64,000 nt of DNA from Deltaproteobacteria bacterium (GCA_040218735.1 JAVJQW010000023.1:160001-224000), one strand, 5' to 3'; shown: positions 8,649 through 64,000, numbered from the stretch's first letter. A program made the numbers and translations. Notes: generated by a model not told the origin, from the sequence alone.

Positions 8649-10121
<1,473 letters not shown>

Positions 10122-13361: not shown

Positions 13362-13367
13362 CGCGCG

Positions 13368-14273: not shown

Positions 14274-14316
14274 AGCGCGCGACTACATCAGCTGTCGACG
14301 AGCCGTCGAGGCTCGC

Positions 14317-14520
14317 TCAACGACAGCTGCGGTCCGCCTCGCACGCGGCTCGTGTGCTGTAGGTATCGCCGCAGTCTCCGCTGCACGCGCAGCTGCAGTT
14401 CGACTCCACGCACGCCGTACCGTTCAAGTACCAAGCCGTGATCGGGCAGCAGGACGCGACGGAGAAGGAGACCTGCTTGGCGCTGCAGCTGGCGGGCGCC
14501 GCGCAACTCGGTGGCGGCCG
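14317..14520 (-). pseudogene. Start-less Cys-rich reading frame (Kunitz-like myxobacterial Cys module remnant)
   Basis: Manual translation RPPPSCAAPASCSAKQVSFSVASCCPITAWYLNGTACVESNCSCACSGDCGDTYSTRAACEADRSCR*, 11 Cys, in frame right after the TGA of the PilZ gene. Confidence 0.5.
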
Positions 14521-15291: not shown

Positions 15292-15342
15292 GGGTTCGAC
15301 TCTACAGTTCGGAGCGCCGAGGCGGGACTAGAGGGCAGCGCG

Positions 15343-48779: not shown

Positions 48780-51700
48780 ACGTCCTCCTCCACGCTCGAC
48801 GGCACGAGCATGTACGTCGCCGGGATGACGACCAACGTGAGCAGCGTTCCGGCGAGCAACCCACCCGCGACGGTGATCGCGAGCGGCGCGCGCAGCTCGG
48901 CGCCTTCACCCCAACCCACCGCCATCGGGATGAGCGCGAGGATGGTGGTCATCGTGGTCATGAGGATCGGGCGCAGCCGAACGTGCCCGGCGCGCACGAC
49001 CGCTTCGAGCTTGGTCAGACCTTCACGGCGGTAGCGGTTGATCGCGTCGATCAAGACGATCGCGTTGTTCACCACGATACCCACCAACATGATCGCGCCT
49101 ATCAACACGATCACCGTGACCGTGGTGTTGGTAACGAGGAGGGTCGCCACCACGCCGATCAGCGCGAGCGGGATCGTGAACAGGACGATGAACGGGTGGA
49201 TGAGTGACTCGAACGTCGAAGCCATCACCAGGTAGACGAGGAAAATCGCGAGCGCGACCGCGAACCGAAGGCTATTGAAACTCACCTCCATCTCGCGGTT
49301 CTGGCCGCCGATCTCCGAGGTCAGGCCGCGGTCTCCCATCGTCTCGAGTGTGTCCTCCACGGCGCGGACGGCGGCGCCGAGGCTGCGGCCTTCGAGGTTC
49401 GCGGTGATGAGCGCCGCGCGCTGCTGCTGGAGCCGGTGGATCTCGGCGGGACCACGCGCGGCGGAGACGGTCGCGATCGAGAGCAAGCGGATCTGCGCAC
49501 CGTCCGGCCCCGGGAGCACCAGGCGTCGGACGTCCTCGACGGACTGACGGGTGGTCTCGTGGTTGAGGAGGCGAATGTCGATCTGCCGGTCGGCCTCCTT
49601 GAAGCGCGTCGGTACCGCGCCCTGTACGCGGCTCTTGAGTGTGTTCGACATCGTCGCGAGGTCGAGCCCCATCGCCGCGACGCGACGGCGGTCGAACACG
49701 ACCTGGAGCTCGGGGTTGCCGGCTTCGAGCGAGGAGCGAACGTCGACGAACCCATCGAGCTCGGAGAGTCGCTCCGCGAGCTCGAGTGAGTACGCGCGGA
49801 GCGCTTCGAGGTTGTCACCGAACACCACGATCTCGATCGGCACTTGGAGCGAGAAGTAGGTCGGGTAACCGTGGCGAATCTCGGCGTCGGGGATGGTCGA
49901 GAAGCCCTTGCGCAACCTCGACGCGATCGCGTCCTCCGCGACGGTGTCACTTCGGTCCTTCACGACGATGTCGAGCTGCGCGAGGTTCTCGGCCTGGCTG
50001 TTCACGGAGACACCGCCCGAGACCTGCCGACTGCCGACGATCAGGAACTGTTTCTCGACGCCCTCTTCTTTGGCGACGAGCGCCTCCATCTGTTTGACGA
50101 CGCGGTCCGTCGCGGCGAGCGAGGTGCCCTCCGGCATCTCGACGTCGTAGAAGAACTCACCGGAGGAGAGGCGCGGGATGAGCTCGGACTCCAGGTTGAC
50201 CGCGGCGTAGAGCGAACCGGCGAAGAGCCCAGCGGCGACCAGGAGCACCACGATGCGCGCGCGTATCGCGCCGCGCAGGAGTTTGTCGTACGCGCGTGAA
50301 GCGCGCCCGAGCGTGGCGGCCGCTTCTTCGGGATCCGCCGAGAGCTTCGGCGGTTTGTTGGCGCCGCCACGCGCGCTGAGCATGGGGATGACGGTGATCG
50401 CGACGACGAGCGCCGCGATGAGGCTGATGGTGACCGTGACCGCCTGGTCTTCGAAGAGCTGCCCTGCGATGCCCTCGACGAAGACGATCGGGAGGAACAC
50501 CGCGATCGTCGTGAGGGTGGAAGCGACGACCGCCGGGCCGACTTCGGTGGCGCCTTCTATCGCGGCCTCGCGCGCGGTCGCGCCCTCTTGGCGTCGTCGG
50601 TGGATCGACTCGAGCACCACGATCGCGCTGTCGACGAGCATGCCGACGCCGAGCGTCAGACCTCCGAGCGACATGATGTTGAGGCTGACGTCCATGCGGT
50701 ACATCGCCATGAACGTCGCGACGACCGACAGCGGGATCGCGGTCGCGATGACGATGGTGCTCTTGATGTCGCGCAGGAAGAGGAGCAGCACGAGGATCGC
50801 CAGCGCACCGCCGATCAGCGTGGCGTCGCGAACCTCCTCGACGGCCTGCTCGATGTAGCGCGACTGATCGAACAGGACGGTGATTTCGTAACCCTCGGGG
50901 AGCTTCGTTCTCCACGTGTCGAGGCGCTCCTCGAGCGCACGCGCCGCGAACACGGTGTTGGCGTCGCCCTCCTTGAAGATGGCGACTTCGACGGACTCCT
51001 TCCCGTTGAAGCGCGTGATCTCCTCGCGCTCGCGCGCACCGCGGTAGACCTTGGCGACGTCGTTCAGTCGGACGATGCGTCCGTCGGTGTCGGAGATGAT
51101 GAGCTCGGCGATCTCTTCGATGGAGTCGAGCTCGTTGACGGTGCGGATGAGAAACTCGCGGTCGGCGCCGCGGAGCGCGCCGCCCGGTACGTTCACGTTG
51201 GAAGCGCCGATCCTCTGCTCGACGGTCGCGAGCGGGATCTTCAACGCGGCGAGCTTTTCTTGGTCGATCTCGACGCGGATCTCTTCTTCGAGGCCGCCGC
51301 GAAGCTCGGCGGCGGCGATGCCCACGACGGTCTCGAGGTCGGGCTCGATGCGGCGCTCGGCGAAGTGGCGTATCTCGCGGAGGTCGGCGTTGCCGGTGAT
51401 CGCGAGGCGGACGATGGGATCGAGCGACGGGTCGTAGCGCAGGACGATCGGATCGTCGGTGCCCTCCGGGAGGATGATGCGGTCGAGCTTCTCGCGGACG
51501 TCCATCGCGAGGCTGCTCATGTCGGAGCCCCACGCGAACTCCATGCTCACCTCCGAGACGCCGGGGCGCGAGACGGAGTGCATGCGTTCGAGCCCGCGCA
51601 GCACGCCGGCGGCCTCTTCGACCGGCCGCGTAACCATCGTCTCGACCTCCTGCGGCGCGGCGTCCTCGAACTCGGTGCGGATGGTGAGCGTGGGGTACGC

Positions 51701-51823
51701 GATGTCCGGGAACAGCTCGACGGAGAGGCGTTGGTAGCCGACGATGCCGAACGCCGTCACGGCGATGGCGAACATCGTCACGCTGACGCGACGACGGACG
51801 GCGAGCTCGATGAGTCCGCGCAC
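48776..51823 (-). CDS. RND efflux permease subunit (AcrB/MdtBC-like)
   Basis: GMLVDSAIVV, GIVVNNAIVL, RLRPILMTT, PLAITVAGGL. Confidence 0.95.
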   Translation of the reverse strand: MRGLIELAVRRRVSVTMFAIAVTAFGIVGYQRLSVELFPDIAYPTLTIRTEFEDAAPQEVETMVTRPVEEAAGVLRGLERMHSVSRPGVSEVSMEFAWGSDMSSLAMDVREKLDRIILPEGTDDPIVLRYDPSLDPIVRLAITGNADLREIRHFAERRIEPDLETVVGIAAAELRGGLEEEIRVEIDQEKLAALKIPLATVEQRIGASNVNVPGGALRGADREFLIRTVNELDSIEEIAELIISDTDGRIVRLNDVAKVYRGAREREEITRFNGKESVEVAIFKEGDANTVFAARALEERLDTWRTKLPEGYEITVLFDQSRYIEQAVEEVRDATLIGGALAILVLLLFLRDIKSTIVIATAIPLSVVATFMAMYRMDVSLNIMSLGGLTLGVGMLVDSAIVVLESIHRRRQEGATAREAAIEGATEVGPAVVASTLTTIAVFLPIVFVEGIAGQLFEDQAVTVTISLIAALVVAITVIPMLSARGGANKPPKLSADPEEAAATLGRASRAYDKLLRGAIRARIVVLLVAAGLFAGSLYAAVNLESELIPRLSSGEFFYDVEMPEGTSLAATDRVVKQMEALVAKEEGVEKQFLIVGSRQVSGGVSVNSQAENLAQLDIVVKDRSDTVAEDAIASRLRKGFSTIPDAEIRHGYPTYFSLQVPIEIVVFGDNLEALRAYSLELAERLSELDGFVDVRSSLEAGNPELQVVFDRRRVAAMGLDLATMSNTLKSRVQGAVPTRFKEADRQIDIRLLNHETTRQSVEDVRRLVLPGPDGAQIRLLSIATVSAARGPAEIHRLQQQRAALITANLEGRSLGAAVRAVEDTLETMGDRGLTSEIGGQNREMEVSFNSLRFAVALAIFLVYLVMASTFESLIHPFIVLFTIPLALIGVVATLLVTNTTVTVIVLIGAIMLVGIVVNNAIVLIDAINRYRREGLTKLEAVVRAGHVRLRPILMTTMTTILALIPMAVGWGEGAELRAPLAITVAGGLLAGTLLTLVVIPATYMLVPSSVEEDV

Positions 51824-51829
51824 GAGTTG

Positions 51830-52861
51830 TCAGCCTTCGAGGACTTTGATCGGCGCGCCGTCTTCGAGGGAGTGTTGGCCCTTCACGACGACCTTCTCCC
51901 CGGCGGCGACGCCCTTCTTCGCTTCGATGACGTCGTCTTCTTCGAAGCCGATCTCCAGCACGCGACGTTCGACGGCGTCGCCCTTCGCGACGTAGACGAC
52001 GCGGTCCTGGCGTTCCTCGACGATGGCGATGCGCGGCACGAGCGTGGCGGTGTCGCGGCGTTCGGTGACGATGCGAACTTCGGCGAAGTCACCGGCGCGG
52101 GTCCCTTCGGGATATTCGGGGATCTCGATGGAGACCTTCACGGTGCCACTCGTGGGATCGATGACGGGGCTGACGAGGAAGATCTTTCCGATGAGCTCGG
52201 TCTTGTCGCTGTCGACGACGAGCTTCACGGCTTGGCCTTGTTTCAACCGCTTGAGCTCCTTCGCGGGGACGTAGACACGCGCGATGAGCGGCGTGAGATC
52301 GACGATGTCGAACAGCGGCGTTCCGTTGCTGACGGTGCGCCCGACGTCGACGGCGCGTGAGGTGAGTCGTCCGGCGAACGGGGCGCGCACGGTGGTGCGG
52401 GAGAGCTCGAGCCGCGCGATGTCTTCGGCGGCTTTGGCGGCGGCGAGTTGTTGTTTCGTGGTCGCGAGCTCCTCGGCGGGGGCGAGGTCCTTGGCGACGA
52501 GTTTCTGCAGGAGTTTGACTTGGTCGGCGAGGCGTTGGGTCTCGGCTTCGGCTTGCGCGACCTTCAGCCGGTACTCGTCGTTGTCGATGCGGAGGAGGAC
52601 GGCGTTCTCTTTCACGAGGTCGCCTTCTTCGTGCTGGATGCGCTCCACGAGTCCGGCGACGCGCGCGAGCACACTCGCGGTCTTCTGCGGCTCGAGCGTC
52701 GCGGTCGCGACGTAGTACGCGGATATCGGCCCGGTCTTCACTTCGGAGAGCGCGACGGGCGCGGGGGGCCGCTTGGGTTTGTCGCCCTTCGGGGCGTCCT
52801 TGGCGGACACGGAGTCACACGCGAGCACCGCGAACGCGGCGATGAGGAGGAGGGGGCGCAT
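51830..52861 (-). CDS. RND periplasmic adaptor (membrane fusion protein)
   Basis: Lipobox VLAC; EGDLVKENAVL, VRAPFAG, SPVIDPTSGT, GEKVVVKG. Confidence 0.92.
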   Translation of the reverse strand: MRPLLLIAAFAVLACDSVSAKDAPKGDKPKRPPAPVALSEVKTGPISAYYVATATLEPQKTASVLARVAGLVERIQHEEGDLVKENAVLLRIDNDEYRLKVAQAEAETQRLADQVKLLQKLVAKDLAPAEELATTKQQLAAAKAAEDIARLELSRTTVRAPFAGRLTSRAVDVGRTVSNGTPLFDIVDLTPLIARVYVPAKELKRLKQGQAVKLVVDSDKTELIGKIFLVSPVIDPTSGTVKVSIEIPEYPEGTRAGDFAEVRIVTERRDTATLVPRIAIVEERQDRVVYVAKGDAVERRVLEIGFEEDDVIEAKKGVAAGEKVVVKGQHSLEDGAPIKVLEG

Positions 52862-53188
52862 GGGCGGGGGCATGATGCCCGATCGGCGCGAGGGTGCCCA
52901 TGCATTCGTGGGGCGACAAAGTGCAGTGGATTCGCTGCGGTACATGGGTTCGGAGCGTGAAACGCGGCGTGCGGGCGAGATGTTCCGGTGGGCGTCGATG
53001 ACGCAATGCGTACCGCGCGGTCTCGGTCCGGGGCGGGGGCTCGCGCGGGGAGCCCGTCGGCGGGTCGTTGGTCGCGGAGACGCGCGCCGCGCGCAGCGCG
53101 TCTTTCGCGGCGACGTGAGATCGGTCGCCACGACCACATAGTCACTCGCGCTCGCGCTCGCGACAGCGCCGGCGAAAGGACGATCCTC

Positions 53189-54442
53189 ATGCAACGACTC
53201 CTTCGCGCGATCCTCGCGTTCATGATCCTCGGCGCGTCGGCGCGGGTGTACGCGTACGATCTCTACAACGAGGCCAACTGCAACCCGGGGCGAAAGTGGG
53301 GGACCGTCAACACCGTGAAGGTGCGGTTCCTCCAGGACAGCTTCACCGACTACATGTCGGACCGCGGCGTCTCGATCTCCTCGGCGGAGTACTGGGCGGC
53401 GTACTGGCCGATGATGGACGACATCTACGCGGTCATCGACGAGTACAACGCGATCACCGGCATCTCGTTGGAGTTGGAGTACGCGGGGTTGATCACGGGC
53501 GACGACAACCTCGATCCGTTCTCGACAGACGACTTCCAGAACCACTCGATCATCATCGGCTTCAGCGACGGCCCGAACACGAGCAACCTCGCGTGGTCGG
53601 TGCCGCATCCGGACGACGTCTGCACGAACACCGAGGCGCACGTTGCGTTCAAGAAGACATACACCTGGGTCTTCGGGCCGCCGGCGACGACGGACGTCGA
53701 TGGGAAGTACTTCGACGGGGGCTACTCGTTCCGGAGCGTCCTGCTGCACGAGGTCGGGCACGCGGTGGGTTTGGCGCACCCACCGGATGAGTACGCGGTC
53801 ATGGCGAACGGCACGAAGGCGTGGACGCGTGGCCCGGGTGAAGGGCCTCAGGTCGAGCTGCTGCCGGATGACTTGCGCGGCCTCGTCGCGTTGTACGGCA
53901 ACGGCGGTGCGCGCAACTTCGACGTCTCCGTCACGAACACGTGGTTCCTCCCGCTCGGGCACCCGGACAACAACGCGAACGACGCGCTGCAGATCCAGAA
54001 CTGCAAGGTCTCGGCACGCGCGAGCGCGTACGCGCCGCATGAAGACGAAGAGGTCTCCTGCGGCGTGGGGGCGACGAACGACGTCTGCCCAGGTGCGTAC
54101 GTGCAGCTTCGCTACACGATCAACAATAAGTCGACGGAGACGCTCGACATGGTGGAGCAGGTCTGGTTCTCGCTCGACGACGACCTGGAGGTGAACGGCG
54201 CCGCGATGGACGCGAAGTCACCGGACGAGCGCAACTCCACGGTCAACGCAGAGTCGAGCGCCACCATGGGCCGAGTCTTCCGCGTCCCCGCGGGCACGCC
54301 GAACGGTCAGTACCGCGTGTTCGCGCGGGTAGTTCCGTACAGCACGACGGGCGTGAGCCGATGGCCCGACGACGAGGACAAGTGGAACAACAGCATCCTG
54401 GTGCGGAGCTTCATCGACGTGGACACCAACGCATGCCCGTAG
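53189..54442 (+). CDS. Secreted metzincin (matrixin-like) zinc metalloprotease
   Basis: Signal peptide; HEVGHAVGLAH and Met-turn AVM. Confidence 0.88.
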   Translation: MQRLLRAILAFMILGASARVYAYDLYNEANCNPGRKWGTVNTVKVRFLQDSFTDYMSDRGVSISSAEYWAAYWPMMDDIYAVIDEYNAITGISLELEYAGLITGDDNLDPFSTDDFQNHSIIIGFSDGPNTSNLAWSVPHPDDVCTNTEAHVAFKKTYTWVFGPPATTDVDGKYFDGGYSFRSVLLHEVGHAVGLAHPPDEYAVMANGTKAWTRGPGEGPQVELLPDDLRGLVALYGNGGARNFDVSVTNTWFLPLGHPDNNANDALQIQNCKVSARASAYAPHEDEEVSCGVGATNDVCPGAYVQLRYTINNKSTETLDMVEQVWFSLDDDLEVNGAAMDAKSPDERNSTVNAESSATMGRVFRVPAGTPNGQYRVFARVVPYSTTGVSRWPDDEDKWNNSILVRSFIDVDTNACP

Positions 54443-54463
54443 GGTTCGCGGGCTTCAGCCGCC

Positions 54464-54572
54464 TCAAGTTGCTTGGGACCCGTAGTAGCGCCGAATCGCG
54501 TCTTCGACGTCCTGCTTCGATGCGATGAGGACTTCGATGTTGTAGCCGGTGTGGCTCCGAAGCGAATTCTGT
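54464..54572 (-). pseudogene. Fragment of a PilB/GspE N-terminal (T2SSE_N) domain
   Basis: LRSHTGYNIEVLIASKQDVEDAIRRYYG with no usable start of its own. Confidence 0.55.
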
Positions 54573-55028
54573 CTAGCGAACGCTGGATGGTTGGAGTGCG
54601 TCGTCGAGCACCTCCAGGGCGGCGGGCCAGTTGTCCTCGTGTGCTTTGCACGCGGCCTCCGTGCTGAAACCCGAGTGGTGGAGTCTGAGGAGCGTGCCGT
54701 CCCCTCGGGGCTCGAGCTCGACCTCGATGACCGTCTCGTCGCCATAGGTTCCAGGTGCACCCGTCAGCCAAGTCATCTTGACGCGGCGGTCCTTCTCGAG
54801 CTCGAGGAAGCGTCCGTAGTGGGCGTGCCGCCCCCAGTCGTGTCGATTGTAGAAGAAGAACAGGCTCCCTACTTCGGGGGTCATGATCAACTCACCGGGT
54901 TGGGCGAACCACTTATCGAATCTACGGGTCCATGCGTCGTAAATGAGTGTGGCGGCGGTCTTCATCTCGCGCTCTACGGTCATGGAGAAGGGACGTGATG
55001 AGAGATCGGGGACGAAGGGTTCGAACAT
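54573..55028 (-). CDS. SRPBCC/AHA1-like protein
   Basis: IYDAWT...WF, GRFLELE...MTW, VELEPRGDGTLLRLHHSGF...W. Confidence 0.85.
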   Translation of the reverse strand: MFEPFVPDLSSRPFSMTVEREMKTAATLIYDAWTRRFDKWFAQPGELIMTPEVGSLFFFYNRHDWGRHAHYGRFLELEKDRRVKMTWLTGAPGTYGDETVIEVELEPRGDGTLLRLHHSGFSTEAACKAHEDNWPAALEVLDDALQPSSVR

Positions 55029-55047
55029 ACTCACCTCGGATTCTTGG

Positions 55048-55578
55048 CTAGCTCCCGATTCGGAGATAGACCGCGGCCGCGCGGCTGCCGGCGATGACCC
55101 GCTCTCCGGCGTTGTCGTACTCACTCCGCGCTCCGCAGTAGACGTAGATCTTGGAGTCCGCGATGTAGGCCGAAGAGGGGCGACAGACCGAGCTGTTGAT
55201 CGGTCCCAAGCACGTGGCGCCCGCGGGGCATTCGCCGCCTGCCGGGAGCGTATTGTCCGGGTCCCCGATTCCGCCGCAGATGAAGGTCGACAGCACCGGC
55301 GCGTCGGACGGCTGAAGCCCGGGCACGTTGAACTCAGCGTAGCGCTGGATGGAGACCTGGTTCGTCGCTGCGTATCGGGTCGACTGCTCGACCGAGCAAT
55401 CTCCCAGCATGGCGCCCGAGCCCGACTGCGCCCCTGCGTCGTTGGCACCCGCGTCCGCGAGGAACGCGCCGGCGTCCATGAGCGCCTCGCCGATCGATCG
55501 GGAGCCGCACCCAGCTCCGACCGAGAGGCCCAGGGAGGACAACAGGACGGCGAGGATCTGCAGAGGCTTGCGAGGCAT
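55048..55578 (-). CDS. Hypothetical lipoprotein
   Basis: Lipobox GAGC; DAG repeats; several Cys. Confidence 0.6.
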   Translation of the reverse strand: MPRKPLQILAVLLSSLGLSVGAGCGSRSIGEALMDAGAFLADAGANDAGAQSGSGAMLGDCSVEQSTRYAATNQVSIQRYAEFNVPGLQPSDAPVLSTFICGGIGDPDNTLPAGGECPAGATCLGPINSSVCRPSSAYIADSKIYVYCGARSEYDNAGERVIAGSRAAAVYLRIGS

Positions 55579-55633
55579 GGCGAGGATTCAACCACGGAAC
55601 GATCGCCGCCGGTAAGCGAGTCGCTCCGCGCGC

Positions 55634-56140
55634 TCATGCGCAGACGCTTCGAATCTCGTGCTCGATGGCCCGAGCGGCCTCCTTCGCGTCGGTGTCGTTG
55701 GAAACGAAGCGCCCGAAGTCCTTCGTGCGCTGCTCCGCGAGCTCTTTCCATGCGCGTCGAACGTCGTCCGAGGAGGTCTGTCGGCCTCTCTGCTTCGCGC
55801 GCTCTATTGCGACGTCCAGCGGCGTCCAGACGACGAACACCGACAGCTCTGTTTCCGCGTGTATTTGGGAAGTGAATCGCGCGATGTCCGTGGGGTTGCG
55901 GAACACGTAGTCGACGAGCACGAGCTCCGCGCCCATCTCTAGGTATGCGCGCGAGAGCGCTCCTGCAGCGCGATACGTAGATCCTCCTCCGAGGACGGCG
56001 CGGGCATCGGCCGGAGCGAAACGACGAACTGCGTCGCCATCGATGTACACGGCCTCGGGAAAGGCCTCCCGGAGTCGTTGGCAGATGGTGGTCTTCCCGG
56101 CGCCTGGCGGCCCGGTGATTATCGCAATCTTACCGACCAT
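55634..56140 (-). CDS. Small P-loop kinase (AAA_33-like)
   Basis: IITGPPGAGKTT, IDGDAVR, AIERAKQR. Confidence 0.82.
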   Translation of the reverse strand: MVGKIAIITGPPGAGKTTICQRLREAFPEAVYIDGDAVRRFAPADARAVLGGGSTYRAAGALSRAYLEMGAELVLVDYVFRNPTDIARFTSQIHAETELSVFVVWTPLDVAIERAKQRGRQTSSDDVRRAWKELAEQRTKDFGRFVSNDTDAKEAARAIEHEIRSVCA

Positions 56141-56151
56141 GGCACTCCAGA

Positions 56152-56216
56152 CCCCAGCGAGCAGATCCTACCTCAGGCCGCGGTTCGGCCATCGGTTCTA
56201 CGTGGTGCTGTGGGAC
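56152..56216 (-). repeat. Possible degenerate attC site
   Basis: Minus strand GTCCCAC...GCTGGGG (each one mismatch from an AAC/GTT core), 65 bp. GTCCCAC nearly complements the GTTGGAC that opens the cassette. Confidence 0.3.
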
Positions 56217-56242
56217 AGGCGGCGTCGGCTCCATGGTCGCGG

Positions 56243-56830
56243 TTACGATCGCTGAAGCGCGCCGCATACGACGAAGTAGATGCGTCGCTCATCGTCGACG
56301 ATCCTCAGCGCGAGCGCCTTCGCGGTCATCTCGCAGCGCGTCGCGAGGTACGCGCGCTCGGTGTCGTTCGCGAGGCGGATGCTCTTTCCATCCCACCGCG
56401 CCGGGCACTCGACGTAGACGACGTCTTTGCAGAGCAGCTCGAACGTCGCGCCGGAGAAGAAGCCATCGTCGTCACCCTGGAGGACGAGGTCGGCATCTCG
56501 CCCCACCCACCGGAAGTCCATGGACTGTGGAAGCGTGTCGAGCATCGCGCGCGCGTCGTTCTCGAGCGCGGGGTCGAGCCCTGGCACGTTGGAATCCACC
56601 TCCCCGCGGGGAACGAAGCGCGGATCGTCGGGCCACACCCGTACAACGGCATAAGCGTCCGCCTCACGAGCGAGCTCCACCTCAACCAGCTCCCCCACTC
56701 TGAAGTCGTCGACCAAGGCGGCAGCCGCGTCGAAACGAAGGCTCGTCGCGCGCGGCGATGAGATCGTCCCGACCCCAAGTTCTCGATCCCACGACTCAAT
56801 GACCCAACCCACAATTGCTCCTTGTGACAT
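56243..56830 (-). CDS. Hypothetical cassette protein (OB/cold-shock-like N-terminus)
   Basis: GWVIESWDRELGVGTI...FRVGELVEVE; follows attC 56854-56914. Confidence 0.6.
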   Translation of the reverse strand: MSQGAIVGWVIESWDRELGVGTISSPRATSLRFDAAAALVDDFRVGELVEVELAREADAYAVVRVWPDDPRFVPRGEVDSNVPGLDPALENDARAMLDTLPQSMDFRWVGRDADLVLQGDDDGFFSGATFELLCKDVVYVECPARWDGKSIRLANDTERAYLATRCEMTAKALALRIVDDERRIYFVVCGALQRS

Positions 56831-56853
56831 CGTGCAGCACCCTTCGCAGACAT

Positions 56854-56914
56854 GTCCAACACCCGACGTTCAGCGGGGAGGCGATGTATCCGCGACCTTG
56901 AAGAATCGTTGGGG
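56854..56914 (-). repeat. attC site (degenerate stem)
   Basis: Minus strand CCCCAAC-gattcTTCAAG...CTGAAcgtcgggt-GTTGGAC, 61 bp. Confidence 0.6.
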
Positions 56915-57130
56915 TCCATCAATTCGAATGCGGCTTGGGCGTCACGGCGAGTTGTGCGTCGCGATCAGTGTCCCGCGCGTCTGGGAGCTAGCTCAACCGC
57001 CACGGCGGGAGATGGAGTCTTCGAGCTGCGGCCGTACCCGGTACCACGCCACCGCGGCCAACGCGGCCGCTTCGGAGATCCTGGGCGCGTCGTTGGGCGG
57101 CCCGCGGCGGACTATGCCGGTCATGGCATC

Positions 57131-57664
57131 TCAGGCCGCTACCAGATGCCGAAACGTAAGGCTGATGCGGGCGCCTGTCCCGGGAGAGGGACGAATCCCA
57201 TGCTGCCAGTCGGTCTGCACGCTCGCCTTCATGGCGAGAAGGGAGCCGGGCGCGAGTTGAATCGGCCACTCCGTGCCTCGGTCAGAACTTCGTCGAAACA
57301 GAAGTGAACGCGGGGCTCCGAGAGAGACGATGCTTGTGCTGGTGCCGGGCACCACTCCTTCCGCCGAGTCGGAGTGAAAGCCCATGCTCGACTCGCCGTC
57401 GTCATAGAGATTCGCAAGGCAGTTGTTGATGGTATGGCCGACGACGCGCTCGATATCGCATATGACCGGCTGGAGCAGTTCTGGAACTTCCGTAGTGGGA
57501 TATGAGTTCCCTGAGTAGTTGTAGGCGCGTCCGAAGGACGCAGTCTTGCGCGCTCGCATGCGGTCGTTCCAGGCGAACGTCCGCATCGCTTCGGCAAAAA
57601 GGGCGGCCGGATCGGCGATGAACGCGGCCACGTACTCGACCTCGAGGTCCTCTGGGAGATTCAT
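57131..57664 (-). CDS. AlkB-like 2OG-Fe(II) dioxygenase (cassette)
   Basis: YNYSG, NNCLANLY, MGFHSD, SLGAPR, WQHGI, RISLTFR. Confidence 0.9.
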   Translation of the reverse strand: MNLPEDLEVEYVAAFIADPAALFAEAMRTFAWNDRMRARKTASFGRAYNYSGNSYPTTEVPELLQPVICDIERVVGHTINNCLANLYDDGESSMGFHSDSAEGVVPGTSTSIVSLGAPRSLLFRRSSDRGTEWPIQLAPGSLLAMKASVQTDWQHGIRPSPGTGARISLTFRHLVAA

Positions 57665-57691
57665 GCCGAGCTTCACCTGTGCACCCTGGTC

Positions 57692-57755
57692 CGCCAACGC
57701 TCACAATAAACTAAGGGAGCTAAGCCCCCCTCAGTCTTCATTTGTGCTCTTGGGT
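57692..57755 (-). repeat. attC site (mutated copy of the 61-bp family)
   Basis: Minus strand ACCCAAG-agcacaaatgaagactga-GGGGGGCTTAGCTCCC-ttagtttattgtgagc-GTTGGCG; aligns with 61498-61558. Confidence 0.75.
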
Positions 57756-57772
57756 GTCCCGCACCAGCTCAG

Positions 57773-58042
57773 TCATGCGGCCAGGAGTGGCGCCAGGTCT
57801 GCCGACTCGACGGGCTTGGCCCCGAGTTTCTCAAGAAGAGTATTCAGTGGAGCGAGCTGCACAGCGGCCGGGTCGAGAATCTCGATACCAATCGGTGATC
57901 CATCCTCGGAGAAGTCGACAACAAGGGAGTCGTCGAAGCGCTCAACACGAGCGCTCCGCACGTCCCTTGCTCTTGGGAGATACAGATAGGCTGCGAATGC
58001 CTTGCCGCGTCGGAATGTAACTTCAAGATAGCAGCGCTTCAT
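57773..58042 (-). CDS. DUF2283-family putative antitoxin
   Basis: AAYLYL...LVVDFSEDGSPIGIEILD. Confidence 0.82.
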   Translation of the reverse strand: MKRCYLEVTFRRGKAFAAYLYLPRARDVRSARVERFDDSLVVDFSEDGSPIGIEILDPAAVQLAPLNTLLEKLGAKPVESADLAPLLAA

Positions 58043-58048
58043 GACTAA

Positions 58049-58321
58049 TCACTCATTGGGAAATGCGGTGACGATGACCAACAGCTCGACGTCCGGATCG
58101 GGTTCGACAATAACGGTCCAGAGTCGCTTGTCGTGGCGCGTGCCAACCGCCCAACGGCCAACGACCTTGTCTTCGTCCAGCTCGTTGGCATCGAACAGCA
58201 TCTTCCTCAGGTCGACCTCCCCGAAGCCGCGGTCCTCCATCCGGCGCTCGACGTGCGGCGTCAGCTCGAGGTCCCAGTCCCACCACCCCGGCCAGTGCTG
58301 CTGTGCCTTGGTCCGCGTCAC
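58049..58321 (-). CDS. DUF4258-family putative RNase toxin
   Basis: LTPHVERRMEDRGF, C-terminal VIVTAF; 6 bp upstream of the DUF2283 gene. Confidence 0.8.
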   Translation of the reverse strand: MTRTKAQQHWPGWWDWDLELTPHVERRMEDRGFGEVDLRKMLFDANELDEDKVVGRWAVGTRHDKRLWTVIVEPDPDVELLVIVTAFPNE

Positions 58322-58443
58322 GCTCCATCACGTACCATACAGCTTGCATTCCCGCCGTCCCGGACGCCAGGGGTCTGTAAGACTCTGAAACCGCAAGCGA
58401 AACAGCGCGGCGCCTGGCCGGGCTCGCCTCTCGGCGCTGGTTC

Positions 58444-58579
58444 ACCCAACGCCCTGGTGTTCAGCTGCGAAGCGCTCGCGCCGGCGGCGTTCGCGCGGGG
58501 CACGGTGCTCGGTGCCAGACCCTCCGGCGTTCGAGCGTAGCACGCGAGTGCTTCGTCAGACTGCAACATCTTGTTGGAC
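58444..58579 (-). repeat. attC site (long, 136 bp)
   Basis: Minus strand GTCCAAC-aagatgTTGCAGtctgacGAAGCACTCGCG...CGCGAGCGCTTCgcagCTGAACaccagggc-GTTGGGT. Confidence 0.88.
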
Positions 58580-58596
58580 GGCCACGCACACCTCGC

Positions 58597-60576
58597 TCAC
58601 TCCAAGGTCTGCTTCCGTATGTACTCCGACATCGCTGCCGACATCCCTTCTGGAAGCTCAGAGTCGTCCTCGCTTAGATCGTATTGCGAGCCCGTTACCT
58701 TCGCACGCCATTTACCCTCGCTGTCTACCCCCCAAAGGAACGCCTTCGCGCTCTCGTTGGGCGCCACACCAAGGGACACGCCATGAGTTTCTGACCAATA
58801 CTTCTGGGTACTCCGGCTTACAACCAGGCCTTGAGAGGAGAGCCTGTCTTCGATCAGTCTAGTTGTTTCGGCAATTTCTTGAGATACTTGCGAGAAAATA
58901 TCGGCGGTCGATAGAGTTTCAAGAGACGTCGCTGGCAAGTCCCATGTGAAGACAATGAACCCAGCATGTGTCTCAATCGCCGGCGCAACGTTGAGCACCA
59001 TCGCTGATTCGGCGTCGAGTTCATCAGACATGACTTCTTCGTCGCATGTCCATGCGGCGAGGATCTGAATCTCTCGCGAGGAAGGCCTAATTGGAGATGG
59101 AAGCGTGTCCGGGAAGTGCATTATCTCCGCGGTGGAGTGCGTGATTGCGTCCACTGATGGAAACACGTCATGGGACACAAGCCCCACCATGTGGCGCGCC
59201 TGAGTCGGGTCAACCACCCGAACGTCTTCGAGGGCCTGCAGTGCTTCGTGCACCCTTGCGAGTACTTTGCCTGTGTCGGGAATCAATTCTTCCATTGGAT
59301 TCACCCGAAACGAGCGCGGGATCCGTCCATCAGCCAGGAGCGAGCCATCGAACCATGCGCACAAGTAGGCACTCTCGAATGTCCATGGCCAGCTCCGGTC
59401 CGGGGCTGGCACATCAGAGAAATGCCAGTGTTCGGGGTCCTCCTTGACCAACGCAAAGAGGGACCTGTTCCAGCCGAGCGCGGTCGCCTCCGCTTCGGAT
59501 CGAAGCTGAGCCTGCAGTGTTAGACTCGGCCGTCCCACAATCTGGTAGCTTGCCAGAACATCCAGAGATGGCTCAAACAGGCGTATCGCGCCTCCTTCGC
59601 TAACTCGGGCGTCGCACGTGAAAGTCCAGTCGCCCGGGAGCTCAATGAAGAACTCGGCTTCGTCGACGGCAGGAGCGTTTGTAGACTTGACGAACGAGAC
59701 AGGAGCCTGGTCGATCTGCGTCATCGCGCCGGCGCGTTCTCCTTCAAGTGACGAAATGATTGGTCGGCCAACACGCACCGTTATTCTTGGATATTCGCTG
59801 GCGACCCACTCTGCGACGGACCTGGCCACGCAAGCCATTAGCGTCGGCAACTCGAAAAGGTCAACATCACCAAGAAGAGATAGCTCCGTGCCGAAGATCT
59901 CCGGACCCTCACCTTCCTCTGCTGCGAGCGGCTCTGGGTACCTATACGGCTCGAATCGAGTGGTCGCAAGTGCGCCCGGCGAGAACACAACCGAAAGGCT
60001 CGGGAAGACGGCCTTGATGTCGGCGATCACGCTATCCAGGCTTAACTTGGAGCGCAACATGTAGGGCACGATCGGTAAGTCAGACGTGTGTTCGCGAACT
60101 AGGATCGGGAGGTTGAGGGCATTGCCAACTCGATCAACCGAGACGCCGTCGAACCACACGGATCTAAGGAGGGGATTCTGAAGAACCTGCCGCGCCAATT
60201 GGTCTCCGTCAATGAACCGAAGTTCAAAGTCAGGATAGTCGTTGATGTACTCGCGCTTGGCCTGCGGGGATACTTTCGCGTTTGTCACGAACAGTCCTCG
60301 TGCATAGCCCATTTTCAATAGGGCTAGCGGGAGTTCACCAAGTTCGGCACTTGAACAGGTCGCAGACGCCTTCCTGTGGTGTTTGCACTGGGCCACAACA
60401 TCGCGACCATCGGGGGCGCTCGCGTGGACATCACGTCCACCGTCGCCAGGACCATCAGTGATCGTCACGCGCCTATGGCCGGATATCCAGAGCAAGTCGG
60501 CCGTGAGTCGAACGAGCTTGCTCGGGTCAAGGCTGTAGGTGAATCGCGTGAGATCCGTTTCGCCGGCAAGAGACAT
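58597..60576 (-). CDS. Mrr-like restriction endonuclease domain fused to a large unknown region (cassette)
   Basis: LDPSKLVRLTADLL...GPGDGGRDV...VAQCKH...GLFVTN...FIDGDQL (Mrr_cat PD-QxK pattern); lower GC. Confidence 0.82.
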   Translation of the reverse strand: MSLAGETDLTRFTYSLDPSKLVRLTADLLWISGHRRVTITDGPGDGGRDVHASAPDGRDVVAQCKHHRKASATCSSAELGELPLALLKMGYARGLFVTNAKVSPQAKREYINDYPDFELRFIDGDQLARQVLQNPLLRSVWFDGVSVDRVGNALNLPILVREHTSDLPIVPYMLRSKLSLDSVIADIKAVFPSLSVVFSPGALATTRFEPYRYPEPLAAEEGEGPEIFGTELSLLGDVDLFELPTLMACVARSVAEWVASEYPRITVRVGRPIISSLEGERAGAMTQIDQAPVSFVKSTNAPAVDEAEFFIELPGDWTFTCDARVSEGGAIRLFEPSLDVLASYQIVGRPSLTLQAQLRSEAEATALGWNRSLFALVKEDPEHWHFSDVPAPDRSWPWTFESAYLCAWFDGSLLADGRIPRSFRVNPMEELIPDTGKVLARVHEALQALEDVRVVDPTQARHMVGLVSHDVFPSVDAITHSTAEIMHFPDTLPSPIRPSSREIQILAAWTCDEEVMSDELDAESAMVLNVAPAIETHAGFIVFTWDLPATSLETLSTADIFSQVSQEIAETTRLIEDRLSSQGLVVSRSTQKYWSETHGVSLGVAPNESAKAFLWGVDSEGKWRAKVTGSQYDLSEDDSELPEGMSAAMSEYIRKQTLE

Positions 60577-60650
60577 ACCTTTGCGTCCTCATCAGAGCGC
60601 CGAAGTATCGGGGAGTGTAGCACTCGTTGGCTAAGGCGGCCACCTGGTCC

Positions 60651-60712
60651 GTCCAACGCTCACGTTCAGCTGCGGGGCGAAGCCCCGTCAGACTTGAGTG
60701 TGTTGTTTGGGC
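60651..60712 (-). repeat. attC site (61-bp family, 1-nt insertion in R'')
   Basis: Minus strand GCCCAAAC-aacacactcaagtctgac-GGGGCTTCGCCCC-gcagctgaacgtgagc-GTTGGAC. Confidence 0.9.
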
Positions 60713-60724
60713 CGCCTTCCTGGG

Positions 60725-61459
60725 CTACGGCGGAGGCAGGCGAAAGTCTATTGCAAGCGCTTCGCAGACCTCGTTCAGCGCTTCCTCGGCGGGCTTCCAT
60801 CCGCCGCAGCAGTCCGGACTCATTGCGATCGTCAGTGCGATGCATCGCGTAGAATCGACGAGGCGACGAAGTTGTTCTGCGAGAGTCTCGACGGCCTTCC
60901 TGTGCCAGAAGCGGGGATTGGAGTCGGCGGAATCCTGAAAGAAGAAGAGGTCGAGATCGAGGTTCACGATGAAGTCGCCGTGCTGAAGAACGCAGTAGCC
61001 CATCAGGTCGGGTACTTTCCATAGATCGATTTCGACGACGTCTACCTCAGGGAGGTCTTCCTTTCGGATGCTCCCGCACTTCTGCGTCACAAAGACGAGA
61101 TTCTCCACGGTGTCTTCGTACTCATGGAGGTAGAGCGGCAGGTAGTTGTCCCAGCGTAGCACGCGACCGGAGCGTGGGTCCTCATTAGGAATGACCGAGT
61201 CGAGGAAGAACTGAATATCGCCAGTCCAGCGCCCCTTCAAGGCTGGCGACCACTCCGCGATTCGCGAACTGAGCATGTCGTAGTGCGCATCAAGGTGGAG
61301 AATGGAATGTGAGCCTCGCGTGTGTCGGGCCCAGCACCATGCAGCGGCCTGATGGTTGTCCATGATGTAGCGATTGCCATCGCTCCATAAGAAGCACTGC
61401 TTGTTCACGCCTGATTCACCCCGACCAAGAAAGGGGATATGCCACGTCGGTTGAGCCAT
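60725..61459 (-). CDS. UPF0489-family protein (arginase/deacetylase-like fold; cassette)
   Basis: YIMDNHQAAAWCW, LHLDAHYD, WDNY, NLDLDLF, TIAMSPDCCGGW. Track start 61510 lies inside attC, so ATG 61459 was chosen. Confidence 0.8.
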   Translation of the reverse strand: MAQPTWHIPFLGRGESGVNKQCFLWSDGNRYIMDNHQAAAWCWARHTRGSHSILHLDAHYDMLSSRIAEWSPALKGRWTGDIQFFLDSVIPNEDPRSGRVLRWDNYLPLYLHEYEDTVENLVFVTQKCGSIRKEDLPEVDVVEIDLWKVPDLMGYCVLQHGDFIVNLDLDLFFFQDSADSNPRFWHRKAVETLAEQLRRLVDSTRCIALTIAMSPDCCGGWKPAEEALNEVCEALAIDFRLPPP

Positions 61460-61497
61460 CTCGCTTGCTTTGAAGAGGATAGCACGGGCTTCGGTCG

Positions 61498-61558
61498 GCC
61501 CAACGCTCACGCTAAGCTGCGGGGCGAAGCCCCGTCAGTCTTGAGCGTGTTGTTGGGC
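61498..61558 (-). repeat. attC site (intact, 61 bp)
   Basis: Minus strand GCCCAAC-aacacgctcaagactgac-GGGGCTTCGCCCC-gcagcttagcgtgagc-GTTGGGC; perfect R''/R' and central hairpin. Confidence 0.93.
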
Positions 61559-61603
61559 GGCACGGCGCATCGTTCATACGGGAAGTCGCTCGTTGGTTCG
61601 GAG

Positions 61604-62260
61604 CTAGTCGTCATCCGGAAAGATCCGCATTGCTGGCCCGCCATCGAGCCAGGTTCGTTCCAGTCGACAGAGGCGACCGACTGCGGCTTGGCGCCGAAGG
61701 AGGTGCTCTGCTTCCTTCCCGGAGAGGTCGGACCAGTCGTGTCTCACAAGTTTTCCGCTAACATTCTCGTCAAGCCATCGACGGAGTTCGAGCACCAGCG
61801 GTTCTGGGGCAACCCGGGTCGGTTGGCCACGCTCCAGGACGAACTCGATAAGCCAACGGCTCGGCGGGGGGACCCGTGTCTCACCATCGTGGTTTCGGAG
61901 GTCGCCTAGATTGGCATCACCGACTCGGACGGTGGCACTCTCAAGTGAGTCTGAGGCGTGCGCCAACTCGAACACGAATTGGGCAGGAACCCGCCACATG
62001 CGTCTCTCGTCAGCGCACCAAATCGCTCCCGTCGCGAGAACACTTCGGTCGCCGACTAACTCGAAGTGTTCGATCTCGAGTCCATCCTGCCAGTAGCCAG
62101 TAGTCTCTTCGTGGTCACGCCAATGGAGCCAGAGTAGTCGCAAGATCTCCGGCCTAAGCAGCGACGTGTCGGCCGGACTAACGTCGTTTCGGAACTGCCG
62201 CCAAACGGCTACGACCTGCGCTTCAAGTTGCGCAAAGTACTCTGGGTCGGCGTAGATCAT
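61604..62260 (-). CDS. Hypothetical protein, first cassette
   Basis: ORF between GTTGGGC (62281) and attC 61498-61558; ATG 62260 is the first start inside the cassette. Confidence 0.65.
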   Translation of the reverse strand: MIYADPEYFAQLEAQVVAVWRQFRNDVSPADTSLLRPEILRLLWLHWRDHEETTGYWQDGLEIEHFELVGDRSVLATGAIWCADERRMWRVPAQFVFELAHASDSLESATVRVGDANLGDLRNHDGETRVPPPSRWLIEFVLERGQPTRVAPEPLVLELRRWLDENVSGKLVRHDWSDLSGKEAEHLLRRQAAVGRLCRLERTWLDGGPAMRIFPDDD

Positions 62261-62274
62261 CGCTGTACTTGTCC

Positions 62275-62350
62275 GCCCAACGCTACATGTTCGGCCTTGG
62301 AGATCCTCAGGCGTACCCGAGATATCACCGTCGGACATAACGCGTTCTGC
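62275..62350 (-). promoter_or_regulatory. Candidate attI site
   Basis: Minus strand GCAGAACGCGTTATGT...GGCCGAACATGTAGC-GTTGGGC. The core matches the R'' of the first attC, and no attC hairpin lies upstream. Confidence 0.5.
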
Positions 62351-62399
62351 GCCCGCGCCACCACCCCACGCGCATCACCACCAACCTCACGCCACCGAC

Positions 62400-63374
62400 T
62401 CAGCAGCACCCGCCCCCACCATAGAAATAAGTACTCCCAGTCACGAACAGATCCCCCCGCCCCAGCGCCTCCAGCGCCCCGGCGGTCTTGTCACACACGT
62501 TCAGCGGCATGTCGCGCACCAGCGTATGCCCCTTCCCGTCGTCGAAGACCTCATCCTTCCCGAAGTAAGTCGCCGTCCGCCCCGTGAAAATACAAGCCCC
62601 GTCCTCCGGTACCGGGTCCTTGATCGCGCAAACCTCGATGCTCTCCAGCAACAAGTGCGCGTCCAACCCATACCGCTCCTTGTCCAGCAAGCGATAAGGC
62701 ACCTTCGACCGGAGCTCGATCGTTCCGAACCCAGCCTTCACCATCGTCGCCAGGTACTCATCCAGGGTCACCGCGCCCGAGATGCACTCCGCGCGGAGGC
62801 GGTCGTCGGCTGCGAGGTGGTCCGGCATCGGGCGCGTCGCGACCGGGTCCGACATGATGAGTCGGCCGTGCGGCTTCAGGACGCGGTGCATCTCCGTGAG
62901 CGCCTTCAGGAGGTGCTCGCGCGTGAAGATGTTGAAGAGGCAGTTCTGCGCCGCCGTGTCGACCGAGCCCGACTCGATCGGCAGGTCCAGCGCGTTGCCG
63001 CGGCGAATGTCGACGAACTCAGGTGAGAACCAATCGTTCTCCAGCGCCGCCACCTCCAAGTTCGCACGCGCCTTGTCCATCATCTCGTCCACGGTATCCA
63101 CCGCGATGACACTCGACGGGCGACGCGTGAAGTACGCGAACTGAAGCGCCTCCATCCCGCCGCCGACGCCGACGTACAGGACCGTCTGCTCCGGACCCAG
63201 GTCCTTCGCGTTCACCGTGGTGCCGCAGCCGTAGTTCATCTCGAGCATCTGCGTCGGGATGTTCAGGCCCGGCATGCGCCAGACCGGGGAGGTCGTGCAG
63301 CACAGCTTGGACATCGGCGCCTCGGCGGCCTCGCGGTAGAGGTCGTCGACAGCCGACAGATAATTTTCGTTCAT
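62400..63374 (-). CDS. arsM: Arsenite S-adenosylmethionine methyltransferase (arsenosugar-type ArsM)
   Basis: LCCT, MNYGCGTTV, YVGVGGGME, AQNCLFN, RAECISGA, VPEDGACIFTG, VCDKTA, C-terminal GGGCC. Confidence 0.9.
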   Translation of the reverse strand: MNENYLSAVDDLYREAAEAPMSKLCCTTSPVWRMPGLNIPTQMLEMNYGCGTTVNAKDLGPEQTVLYVGVGGGMEALQFAYFTRRPSSVIAVDTVDEMMDKARANLEVAALENDWFSPEFVDIRRGNALDLPIESGSVDTAAQNCLFNIFTREHLLKALTEMHRVLKPHGRLIMSDPVATRPMPDHLAADDRLRAECISGAVTLDEYLATMVKAGFGTIELRSKVPYRLLDKERYGLDAHLLLESIEVCAIKDPVPEDGACIFTGRTATYFGKDEVFDDGKGHTLVRDMPLNVCDKTAGALEALGRGDLFVTGSTYFYGGGGCC

Positions 63375-63383
63375 GAGATCTCC

Positions 63384-64000
63384 TCAGTTGTCGGAACCGC
63401 CGCCGCCCGCGACTTCTCCGGCAAACTTTCGGGACAACAGGATCTCGCGGCCACGCATTTCCACGAAACCACGCTTCTGGAACTCGGACAGGACTCGACT
63501 CACCGTCTCACGGCTCGTCCCGATCATCGAAGCGATGTCCTGCTGCGTCGGACGCTCGCGGATGAGGATGCCCTCCTCCACCTCTTCGCCGTCCTTCTTC
63601 GCCAGGTCGATCATGATGTGCGCCACGCGCCCATACACGTCCAACGTCGCCAGGTTCCCGATGATCTCGTCCGCGCGACGCAGACGCCGCGACAGCTCGG
63701 CCATCACGTTCAACGCCGTCGCCGGACTCACCTTGATGTGCGCCGCGAACTGCTCACGCTTCAGGATGAGGACCGTCGAGTCCTCCAGCGCAATCACGTT
63801 CGCCGAACGCGGCAGGTCGTCCAACAACGACATCTCGCCGAAGAACTCACCCGCCTTCAACAGACCCAGGATCACCTCCCGACCGTTGTCGCCGTAGATC
63901 GAGACCTTCACCCGGCCCTTCGCGATGATGAACAGCGCGTCACCCGGCTCGTCCTGCGTGACGATGTGCGCGTCCTTCGTGACGTCGCGCGTCGACAAGA
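63384..64000 (-). CDS. Crp/Fnr-family transcriptional regulator (5' truncated by window end)
   Basis: FFGEMSLLD..PRSANV, HTH TQQDIASMIGTSRETVSR. Confidence 0.95.
   Translation of the reverse strand, partial: LSTRDVTKDAHIVTQDEPGDALFIIAKGRVKVSIYGDNGREVILGLLKAGEFFGEMSLLDDLPRSANVIALEDSTVLILKREQFAAHIKVSPATALNVMAELSRRLRRADEIIGNLATLDVYGRVAHIMIDLAKKDGEEVEEGILIRERPTQQDIASMIGTSRETVSRVLSEFQKRGFVEMRGREILLSRKFAGEVAGGGGSDN

Follow-up and report, generated by a model that had tools for sequence, protein, structure and literature searches.

The stretch of DNA analysed here, 64,000 nucleotides long and referred to throughout as the window, comes from a bacterium filed under the Deltaproteobacteria (GCA_040218735.1, our genome G000; positions 160001-224000 of its contig C9, JAVJQW010000023.1), and between 56152 and 62350 it carries a row of genes separated by hairpins that have the form of attC, the recombination site of integron cassettes. 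[quoted passage not shown] The conclusion is carried by direct observations: the sites and their fold, the family to which they belong, the exchange of box sequences between neighbouring sites (the circular-cassette rule), the presence of an integron integrase (IntI) on another contig of G000, and a cassette swap between strains. The array has two or more clustered attC sites (a and b, see below) and contig C9 holds no intI gene; the adjacent integrase that marks a complete integron is thus absent from the window. Five clear cassettes are present, encoding a 218-aa protein, a UPF0489 protein, a protein with an Mrr domain, a DUF4258/DUF2283 pair and an AlkB-like oxygenase, and two further low-GC genes, a 195-aa open reading frame (ORF) and a kinase gene, may belong to the array.

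attC sites, cassettes and box exchange

All six of the sites proposed in the original prediction are present at the coordinates listed here, each of them between co-oriented minus-strand ORFs, and from 55.6 to 62.3 kb every credible gene lies on the minus strand. Lettered a to f by increasing distance from the arsenite methyltransferase gene arsM, which flanks the array upstream, they are of unequal quality: a and b are secure and c is credible, d and e seem to have decayed, and f is doubtful.

61498-61558, + (the folding, bottom strand): attC a; boxes GCCCAAC/GTTGGGC; secure
60651-60712, +: attC b; same family as site a; secure
58444-58579 (136 nt), +: attC c; boxes ACCCAAC/GTTGGAC, family-type arms, long variable terminal hairpin; credible
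57692-57755, +: attC d; boxes CGCCAAC/CTTGGGT kept, stem weak; looks decayed
56854-56914, +: attC e; 5' arm family-type, 3' arm degenerate; looks decayed
56152-56216: candidate site f; boxes CCCCAGC/GTGGGAC, off consensus; doubtful

On the + strand, site a runs from GCCCAAC through 3 nt of spacer into an 18-bp stem capped by a GAA loop, and from there through 2 nt of spacer to GTTGGGC; an unpaired spacer is present, and the stem has three single-base bulges, all of them on its 3' arm. Canonical attC sites carry two extrahelical bases (T and G). The fold of site a reaches -24.6 kcal/mol (z -6.2), a value that none of 200 shuffles equals. Covariance models were built from G000's own sites: R1, and R2, which was made from the 27 non-window sites only and with which the window was searched with filters off. 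Site a scores 83.1 bits with R1 and 77.4 bits (E 1e-19) with R2, and its opposite strand only 26-28 bits (26.4 with R2). According to the polarity rule reportedly set out by Bouvier et al. in 2009, bulged bases on the 3' arm mark the recombining bottom strand of an attC site; here they mark the + strand as that strand, so that the cassette genes should lie on the minus strand, where they are indeed found. Site b, 786 nt from site a, differs by one additional T in its R'' box (GTTTGGGC) and by two stem mismatches, and scores 62.8 bits with R1 and 53.9 bits (E 8e-13) with R2, its fold being weaker than that of site a (-13.7 kcal/mol, z -2.5). The first stem bulge is a G in sites a and b and in the site at C28:140356, and a C in the main family.

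The full set of attC features (boxes, spacer, a paired L region with bulges and a variable terminal structure) is found in sites a and b; site c has boxes and arms, sites d and e have boxes only, and site f falls short of these. Site c folds at -36.4 kcal/mol (z -2.2), and its 3' arm matches the attC site at C67:343416-343439 in 23 of 24 nt and also has a match at C28:82-103, its arms being of a sub-type found at C28:78-143 and C67:343376-343441 as well. Site d gives marginal scores (16.7 and 17.4 bits, E 0.016-0.028; with R2, 17.4 bits, E 0.028) and folds no better than shuffled sequence; one terminator-like pattern overlaps it. In site e, the 5' arm has a 19-nt match (95%) to positions 3-21 of the attC site at C67:343376. 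Three of the sites had been said to share one family of about 61 bp, which is solid in the case of a and b and weak in that of d. A search for inverted repeats with default-like settings missed the attC sites, their arms being interrupted by bulges, and an Rfam search of 50000-64000 returned no attC family, only two unrelated sub-threshold matches. Three further candidates were rejected: an attC remnant behind arsM at 62275-62349 (fold -10.0 kcal/mol, z -0.93), an attC site after the kinase gene at 55579-55640 (fold z +0.36), and a 43-nt palindrome with attC-like boxes at 57056-57098, which is put down to chance as it is too short, has no model match and carries boxes that break the cassette rule described below.

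The limits of the cassettes were taken from the crossover positions in the boxes:

61504-62280, -: cassette 1; ORF 61604-62260 (218 aa, no family match); ends with attC a
60657-61503, -: cassette 2; ORF 60725-61459 (244 aa), UPF0489 (PF12640, 35.1 bits); ends with attC b
58450-60656, -: cassette 3; ORF 58597-60576 (659 aa), GC at third codon positions (GC3) 0.63
57698-58449, -: cassette 4; genes 58049-58321 (90 aa, DUF4258) and 57773-58042 (89 aa, DUF2283)
56860-57697, -: cassette 5; ORF 57131-57664 (177 aa), AlkB-like 2OG-Fe(II) oxygenase (PF13532, 77.4 bits)
55634-56830, -: low-GC3 island tail; 195-aa ORF 56243-56830, site f, P-loop kinase gene 55634-56140

IntI cuts between the G and the TT of the R' box, so that the six bases opening a cassette derive from that cassette's own attC site and should complement its R'' box rather than the adjoining one. 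In the window, all five informative junctions favour the box of the upstream site over the site's own box: the last box of site c complements the first box of site b in 7/7 positions, and that of site d fits the first box of site c in 6/7 positions and its own in 4/7. At the start of the array, the box opening cassette 1 (62275-62281) complements the R'' box of site a (7/7). The same holds genome-wide, where 22 of 28 junctions are perfect (7/7) to the upstream site and where the 22 informative junctions comprise 20 that favour the upstream box, one that favours the site's own box and one tie; in the IntI-linked array of contig C28 all 14 junctions are perfect, and rare variants are tracked (GCCGAAC is followed by GTTCGGC, twice). 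Such an exchange of boxes between neighbours is a signature specific to the insertion of cassettes as circles by IntI. The circular-cassette rule had been claimed for the first four cassettes from the outset and is borne out, as is the broader claim of an IntI-mediated cassette-capture signature, made up of attC sites folded on the bottom strand, the cassette rule and low GC. The predicted drop in GC is also real: GC is 0.585-0.62 over 57-62 kb, while the flanks have 0.63-0.67 and the genome as a whole has 0.688; the cassette genes have a GC3 of 0.60-0.84 and the flanking host-type genes one of 0.86-0.88.

Cassette 2 is bounded by both intact attC sites. The protein of cassette 3 has an N-terminal Mrr-type restriction endonuclease domain (PF04471, 55.4 bits, residues 15-129), the rest being unassigned, and has no match in PADLOC, which called no defence system and gave only two weak partial matches (CARF_2OG, mad8). 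The two genes of cassette 4, which presumably form a toxin-antitoxin-type pair, score 30.4 bits for DUF2283 and 22.6 bits for DUF4258, the latter below its 25-bit Pfam cut-off. Between the oxygenase gene and site e, 216 nt (in the 56842-57130 region) hold no convincing gene, only a 43-codon ORF. None of the cassette proteins has a high-identity paralogue elsewhere in G000. In the tail, the genes have a GC3 of 0.79 and 0.74, compared with the 0.86-0.88 of the flanking host genes; the kinase gene product has AAA_33 and Zeta_toxin domains, and the 195-aa protein belongs to no family and has relatives in none of 300 other genomes of the phylum.

The integron integrase and its attC family in the genome

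The assembly of G000 comprises 11.6 Mb in 70 contigs with 68.8% GC, and contig C9, which holds the window, is 781 kb long. Its 52 matches above cut-off to MYXO-CTERM (TIGR03901), compared with none in 14 control genomes, support the view of a myxobacterial-type chromosome; that assignment is based on MYXO-CTERM, a domain which we take to be specific to myxobacteria.

The array had been described as having no integrase. This is correct for the window and for the whole of contig C9, on which none of the 13 matches to TIGR02249 in G000 (E <= 0.001) lies, and incorrect for the genome, since a full IntI is encoded on contig C28. The search for a tyrosine recombinase with the IntI-specific insertion thus had a positive outcome: C28:134263-135204 is the one match above the TIGR02249 cut-off (455.5 bits against 265), the protein aligns with VchIntIA (PDB 2A3V) over residues 6-317 (E 1.6e-87), and its residues 180-229 align to IntI but are left out when the protein is aligned, in two pieces, with XerC-like and XerA proteins, as befits the IntI-specific segment.

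C28:126000-143933, complete integron: intI 7955-9229 (+), attI box 9367-9373, attC sites 9898-17836 (positions relative to this stretch)

Downstream of intI, 15 attC sites of the window family follow within 8 kb, co-oriented (+) and continuing up to the contig end, and a GTTGGAC crossover box about 138 nt past the intI stop codon complements the R'' box of the first of them. The intI gene thus lies upstream of the cassettes and co-oriented with them, in the 'reverse' rather than the divergent layout, as it does in the related genomes G016 and G007. The GC of contig C28 (0.674) falls within the range of the 47 contigs longer than 20 kb (0.643-0.697). A long array (more than 10-20 cassettes) of homogeneous attC sites beside intI, the mark of a sedentary chromosomal integron, is found on C28 (15 sites in 8 kb, with more on C15, C39 and C67) and not in the window, with its 5-6 cassettes.

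The family is well defined. Searched with site a, blastn-short finds near-identical cores on C28, C15, C39, C59 and C67, and 18 aligned sites have a mean column identity of 85%. On the stated structure, 96.7% of the 450 cells of the alignment pair, and 8 of the 25 column pairs change on both sides, values reached by none of 500 shuffles; controls with slid partners gave at most 49.9% pairing and at most 2 double-changed pairs. The L stem, for instance, differs between the window (CACGCT/AGCGTG), C28 (GATGAT/ATCATC) and C59 (CCCGTT/AACGGG). In the genome search with R1, scores were computed for 150 of the roughly 11,400 candidates from a first look, and weak sites may therefore have been missed; 29 of those scored reached at least 62 bits: 16 on C28, 5 on C15, 3 on C39, 2 on C67, 1 on C59 and 2 on C9. 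Further copies of the attC site of about 61 bp, whose existence the original prediction had left to be checked, thus occur in arrays on C28, C15, C39, C67 and C59; the scatter typical of repetitive extragenic palindromic (REP) sequences, named there as grounds for refutation, is not seen, the strong family sites being confined to clusters on 6 of the 70 contigs.

A second integrase-less array was found in the interior of a 410-kb contig:

C59:122563-124774: second integrase-less array; one strong attC site (80.5 bits), one weak (27.8 bits), one partial

Its attC spacer sub-type ('AACGC...TTGTT') is that of sites a and b, and the main array has 'AACAC...(A/C)TGTT'. Array termini at the start of C28 (78-143, 1870-1933), the start of C39 (187-1089) and the end of C67 (342723-343441) read inward, and C15 is array throughout; the assembly breaks at repeated attC sites. 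Only one intI-linked start was seen, and the arrays at the two ends of C28 have a common orientation, which means either that there are several large arrays or that C28 closes on itself through an array.

IntI was found above cut-off in 8 of 41 related genomes, G000 counted, in 5 of the 19 other members of its own family (E <= 1e-30; 6/20 with G000) and in 11 of 401 sampled genomes of the phylum, with 0/172 and 0/67 in the sample's two largest families. Related sites were found with R1 in 8 of the 41 genomes, again counting G000. The attC-like sites of G016 (one, 734 nt downstream of intI) and of G007 (two, 2.5-6 kb downstream) are co-oriented with intI, and their position near the gene indicates that the structured repeat travels with IntI in this lineage. 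G011, of the same family, has 28 R1 sites, 25 of them along about 40 kb of its second contig (G011:C2:3862-43548); those at G011:C1:6130191, 6138336 and 6146482, spaced 8,145 and 8,146 nt, look like a tandem triplication with one attC-like site. The named proteins closest to the IntI share 54-65% identity with it and belong to assemblies that carry the labels of many phyla.

Array starts and natural variation of the locus

The window array starts about 95 nt past the stop codon of arsM, a gene of the same orientation, and the sequence found there resembles the attI site of C28.

62275-62305, -: array start, attI-like site; GATCTCCAAGGCCG, 10 nt, G|TTGGGC; box GCCCAAC at 62275-62281 (+)
62400-63374, -: arsM, arsenosugar-type arsenite methyltransferase (NF038099, 516.4 bits, cut-off 400; GC3 0.88)
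63384-63998+: gene of a Crp/Fnr-type regulator, lying before arsM with a 9-nt gap

Written out, the motif at the window start is TCTCCAAGGCCG, and the attI site beside intI on C28 is GATCTCCAAGACCG, followed after 10 nt by GTTGGAC: the two sites are identical at 22 of 31 positions and have the same spacing. The word GATCTCCAAG occurs 88 times in the genome, and with GTTGG 10-18 nt further on it occurs only at these two places. For the array on C59, whose start lies at C59:122563-122592, the cassette rule predicts GTTAGGC as the opening box; this heptamer is found once in the 3.7 kb upstream, 25 nt before the first ORF, with TCTGCAAGACCG 11 nt ahead of it. The combined pattern TCT[CG]CAAG[AG]CCG-N9-13-GTTRRRY occurs three times in all over both strands of the 11.6 Mb, exactly at the three array starts, and the 12-mer alone 21 times; the pattern was derived from the sites themselves and the count is to that extent biased, though the position of the third site was predicted independently.

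Natural variation at the locus was followed in metagenomes. A word search of sequencing runs found one run with the whole stretch, which may be where it came from, and 16 others, from five further studies, with 5-20% of its words, and four runs were compared, as assembled metagenome contigs (Logan contigs), over 48000-64000. In run X2, a 44,929-nt contig matches 62275-64000, the arsM flank, with 7 differences in 1,726 positions (99.6% identity); it then has 1,052 other letters in place of 61559-62274, followed by a match to attC a (50/58) and the contig end. Different cassettes at one locus, exchanged at the attC limits as mobile cassettes would be, are thus seen, on one contig of one study. 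In the same run, the bin with attC a has a depth of 100, compared with about 17 in the flanks, and several different continuations on each side. At the other end of the array, a 42,738-nt contig of X2 matches 48000-56147 (123 differences), lacks 56148-56246, matches 56247-56841 (37 differences in 595), carries 585 letters of other sequence where the window has 56842-56988 with site e, matches again over 56989-57089 and continues with about 3.9 kb foreign to the window. In both X2 and X4, the extent of cassette 4 (57750-58454) is matched exactly by 741-nt contigs, and a contig in X3 covers 56984-58146, the region of cassette 5. No contig of the four runs covers or bridges 58680-61349, which says nothing on its absence. 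The 99 nt of 56148-56246, which extend from the kinase gene to the 195-aa ORF and hold site f, are an indel between close strains: they are absent from contigs of X2 and X4, with 'AT' instead, and present in one of X3. Independent assemblies connect the array with each of its flanks, so that it is no assembly chimera.

Beyond the array, 62400-63998 has a GC of 0.63, below the genome mean, yet a host-like GC3 (0.87-0.88). ArsM was found in one of 20 relatives (G008, 64% identity) and the 484-aa protein of the left flank in none of these 20, the sole genome of the same genus among them being 75% complete. A promoter scan gave two promoter-like sites where 1.2 are expected, none of them usable, and terminator-like patterns were not enriched (five seen, 5.9 expected).

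Origin of the array and its place among integrons

How the array came to lie behind arsM can be answered less firmly than what it is. Tentatively, and knowing that it may well prove wrong, we favour a system of one intI and three arrays, each with an attI-like head (TCTSCAAGRCCG, about 10 nt, G|TTRRRY), in which the arrays of the window and of C59 are living docking platforms, their first cassettes swapped in trans, and not remnants. The IntI encoded on C28 would act in trans on the window array, folded bottom-strand attC sites would be inserted at the attI-like site 62275-62305, and cassettes would be excised by attC x attC recombination; the cassettes nearest to arsM would be the youngest, with intact attC sites, and the distal ones old, with decaying sites. 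Their expression probably depends on read-through from arsM, to judge from co-orientation only. This secondary platform served in trans is favoured by the common start motif, by the gradient from intact to decayed sites (83, 63, 11 for a partial match, 17 and 9 bits with R1, and none for f, by distance from arsM) and by the swap of the first cassette; the start motif and the swap together point to a platform in use over mere debris. Both a single insertion of several cassettes and serial insertion fit the present data.

The decay of sites d, e and f also fits an inert relic, that is, a fragment of an older integron, stranded or translocated and now unused, whose likeness to attI is leftover homology or chance; CALINs have been proposed as degraded integrons (PMC9024848), contig C9 has neither intI nor a remnant of it, and the cassette proteins are singletons in the genome. 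Sites a and b, however, are intact and of the current family, a near-identical flank in X2 carries another first cassette, cut exactly at the box, and the second integrase-less array, on C59, begins with the same motif, and we consider a relic unlikely. Slightly better placed, and still improbable in our judgement, is capture at a secondary site (attG), in which IntI inserted the cassettes at an ordinary genomic GTT after arsM and no dedicated attI-like site existed. IntI1 is known to insert at genomic sites of GWT consensus from which cassettes can be re-excised (10.1101/2022.09.11.507474), the box of the first cassette fits insertion by crossover, and with 21 copies of the 12-mer in the genome we estimate that chance alone would give one or two sites that have a GTT at a suitable distance; but the motif and spacing of the true attI are found at three of three array starts and nowhere else, which an arbitrary GWT would not predict. 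If IntI prefers genomic sites that resemble attI, capture of this kind overlaps with the platform served in trans. Finally, we give almost no credit to the possibility that the hairpins have nothing to do with integrons and are REP-like repeats or terminators, or that the array is an assembly chimera. They are indeed GC-rich intergenic hairpins that follow genes, and one terminator-like pattern overlaps site d; yet strong copies occur only in the arrays of the six contigs, with 16 of the 29 on C28 and 15 directly after intI, the exchange of boxes between neighbouring sites is specific to IntI recombination, terminator-like patterns are no more frequent than expected, and independent metagenome contigs bridge both flanks into the array.

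Several points weigh against our account. (i) Of the six proposed sites, a and b alone are statistically secure: the R2 match of site c is partial and within noise (11.2 bits), an unrelated hairpin at 2258-2299 scores as high with R2 (18.2 bits) as site d does, site e has no R2 match at E <= 2, scores 9.4 bits with R1 and has a fold z of -0.69, and site f finds support neither in the covariance model (R2, E <= 2) nor in its fold. (ii) The gradient of scores is not strictly monotonic (c, as a partial match, 11 bits; d, 17 bits), and could mirror foreign attC types instead of age. (iii) The assignment of C28 to the same organism rests on its GC and on the common attC family, in an assembly of 70 contigs with an estimated contamination of 4.65%. 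(iv) The attI-like motif, which amounts to about 12 shared bases, was drawn up after the sites had been seen, and its conservation beside intI in five relatives was not found, G016 alone having the TTGGTGTT core; such non-conservation is expected if attI sites are integrase-specific. (v) The cassette swap is read from one assembled metagenome contig of another strain, and is a difference in content and not an observed event.

In itself, the window array is of an ordinary, described kind. CALINs, defined in 2016 as attC clusters without an integron integrase (Cury et al. 2016, PMC4889954), are found in half of the cases in genomes that encode IntI and may originate from rearrangements or from insertions into secondary sites (PMC4889954). 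Like them, the window has at least two co-oriented attC sites, no intI nearby and an IntI elsewhere, and is smaller than the IntI-linked array; in contrast to them, it starts at a site resembling attI, where a related strain has another first cassette. With the cassettes inserted at attG sites, namely small CALINs and single attC sites lacking integron integrases (SALINs) (Loot et al., 10.1101/2022.09.11.507474), it shares a chromosomal position off the platform, the GTT crossover and a place downstream of a host gene that could drive expression; attG sites, however, are greatly unlike att sites and have a GWT consensus only (10.1101/2022.09.11.507474), whereas the window start matches the attI of G000 at about 22 of 31 positions. 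The integron system of G000 as a whole also invites comparison with the sedentary chromosomal integrons, of which the Vibrio superintegron and its VCR repeats are an example: its attC sites form one homogeneous, lineage-specific family (85% over 18 sites), and the cassettes of the window encode mostly proteins of unknown function and a toxin-antitoxin-like pair. It differs from them in that intI is co-oriented and upstream of attI and in that the stems have three bulges. An intI in reverse orientation is typical of Spirochaetota IntIs (PMC9668308), and the arrays of G000 (on C28), G016 and G007 likewise lie downstream of intI and co-oriented with it, a likeness that is one of layout alone and concerns C28, not the window.

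The original prediction held that integrons are not well described in Myxococcota, and this needs qualification, since their occurrence is already in print. Myxococcota are among the phyla with integron attC sites in the survey of Ghaly et al. 2022 (PMC9668308); a 2025 paper that reports an integron integrase in a Myxococcota metagenome-assembled genome notes that earlier descriptions are lacking (PMC12772301); a 2026 preprint, restricted to complete integrons, gives their number as 192 in 3,229 myxobacterial genomes (10.64898/2026.09.14.751636); and a 2026 paper found no integrons in its own Myxococcaceae isolates (PMC13616975). Our literature search found no paper describing attC families, CALINs or attI sites of myxobacteria, with the reservation that the supplements of 10.64898/2026.09.14.751636 (Tables 6-10) and PMC9668308 (data S4) may list this lineage.

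In a phylum whose integrons have so far been counted and not described, G000 provides a well-documented integron system of a large myxobacterial genome, made up of an IntI, the main array and two satellites. The usual view of CALINs is that they are debris or were inserted by accident; the integrase-less arrays of G000 share the attI-like start of a true platform, and one of them has another first cassette in a near-identical strain. If the platform reading is true, one integrase could maintain several cassette stores behind different host promoters, the platform of the window would put new cassettes under read-through from arsM, and the way in which cassette reservoirs are counted in genomes would change.

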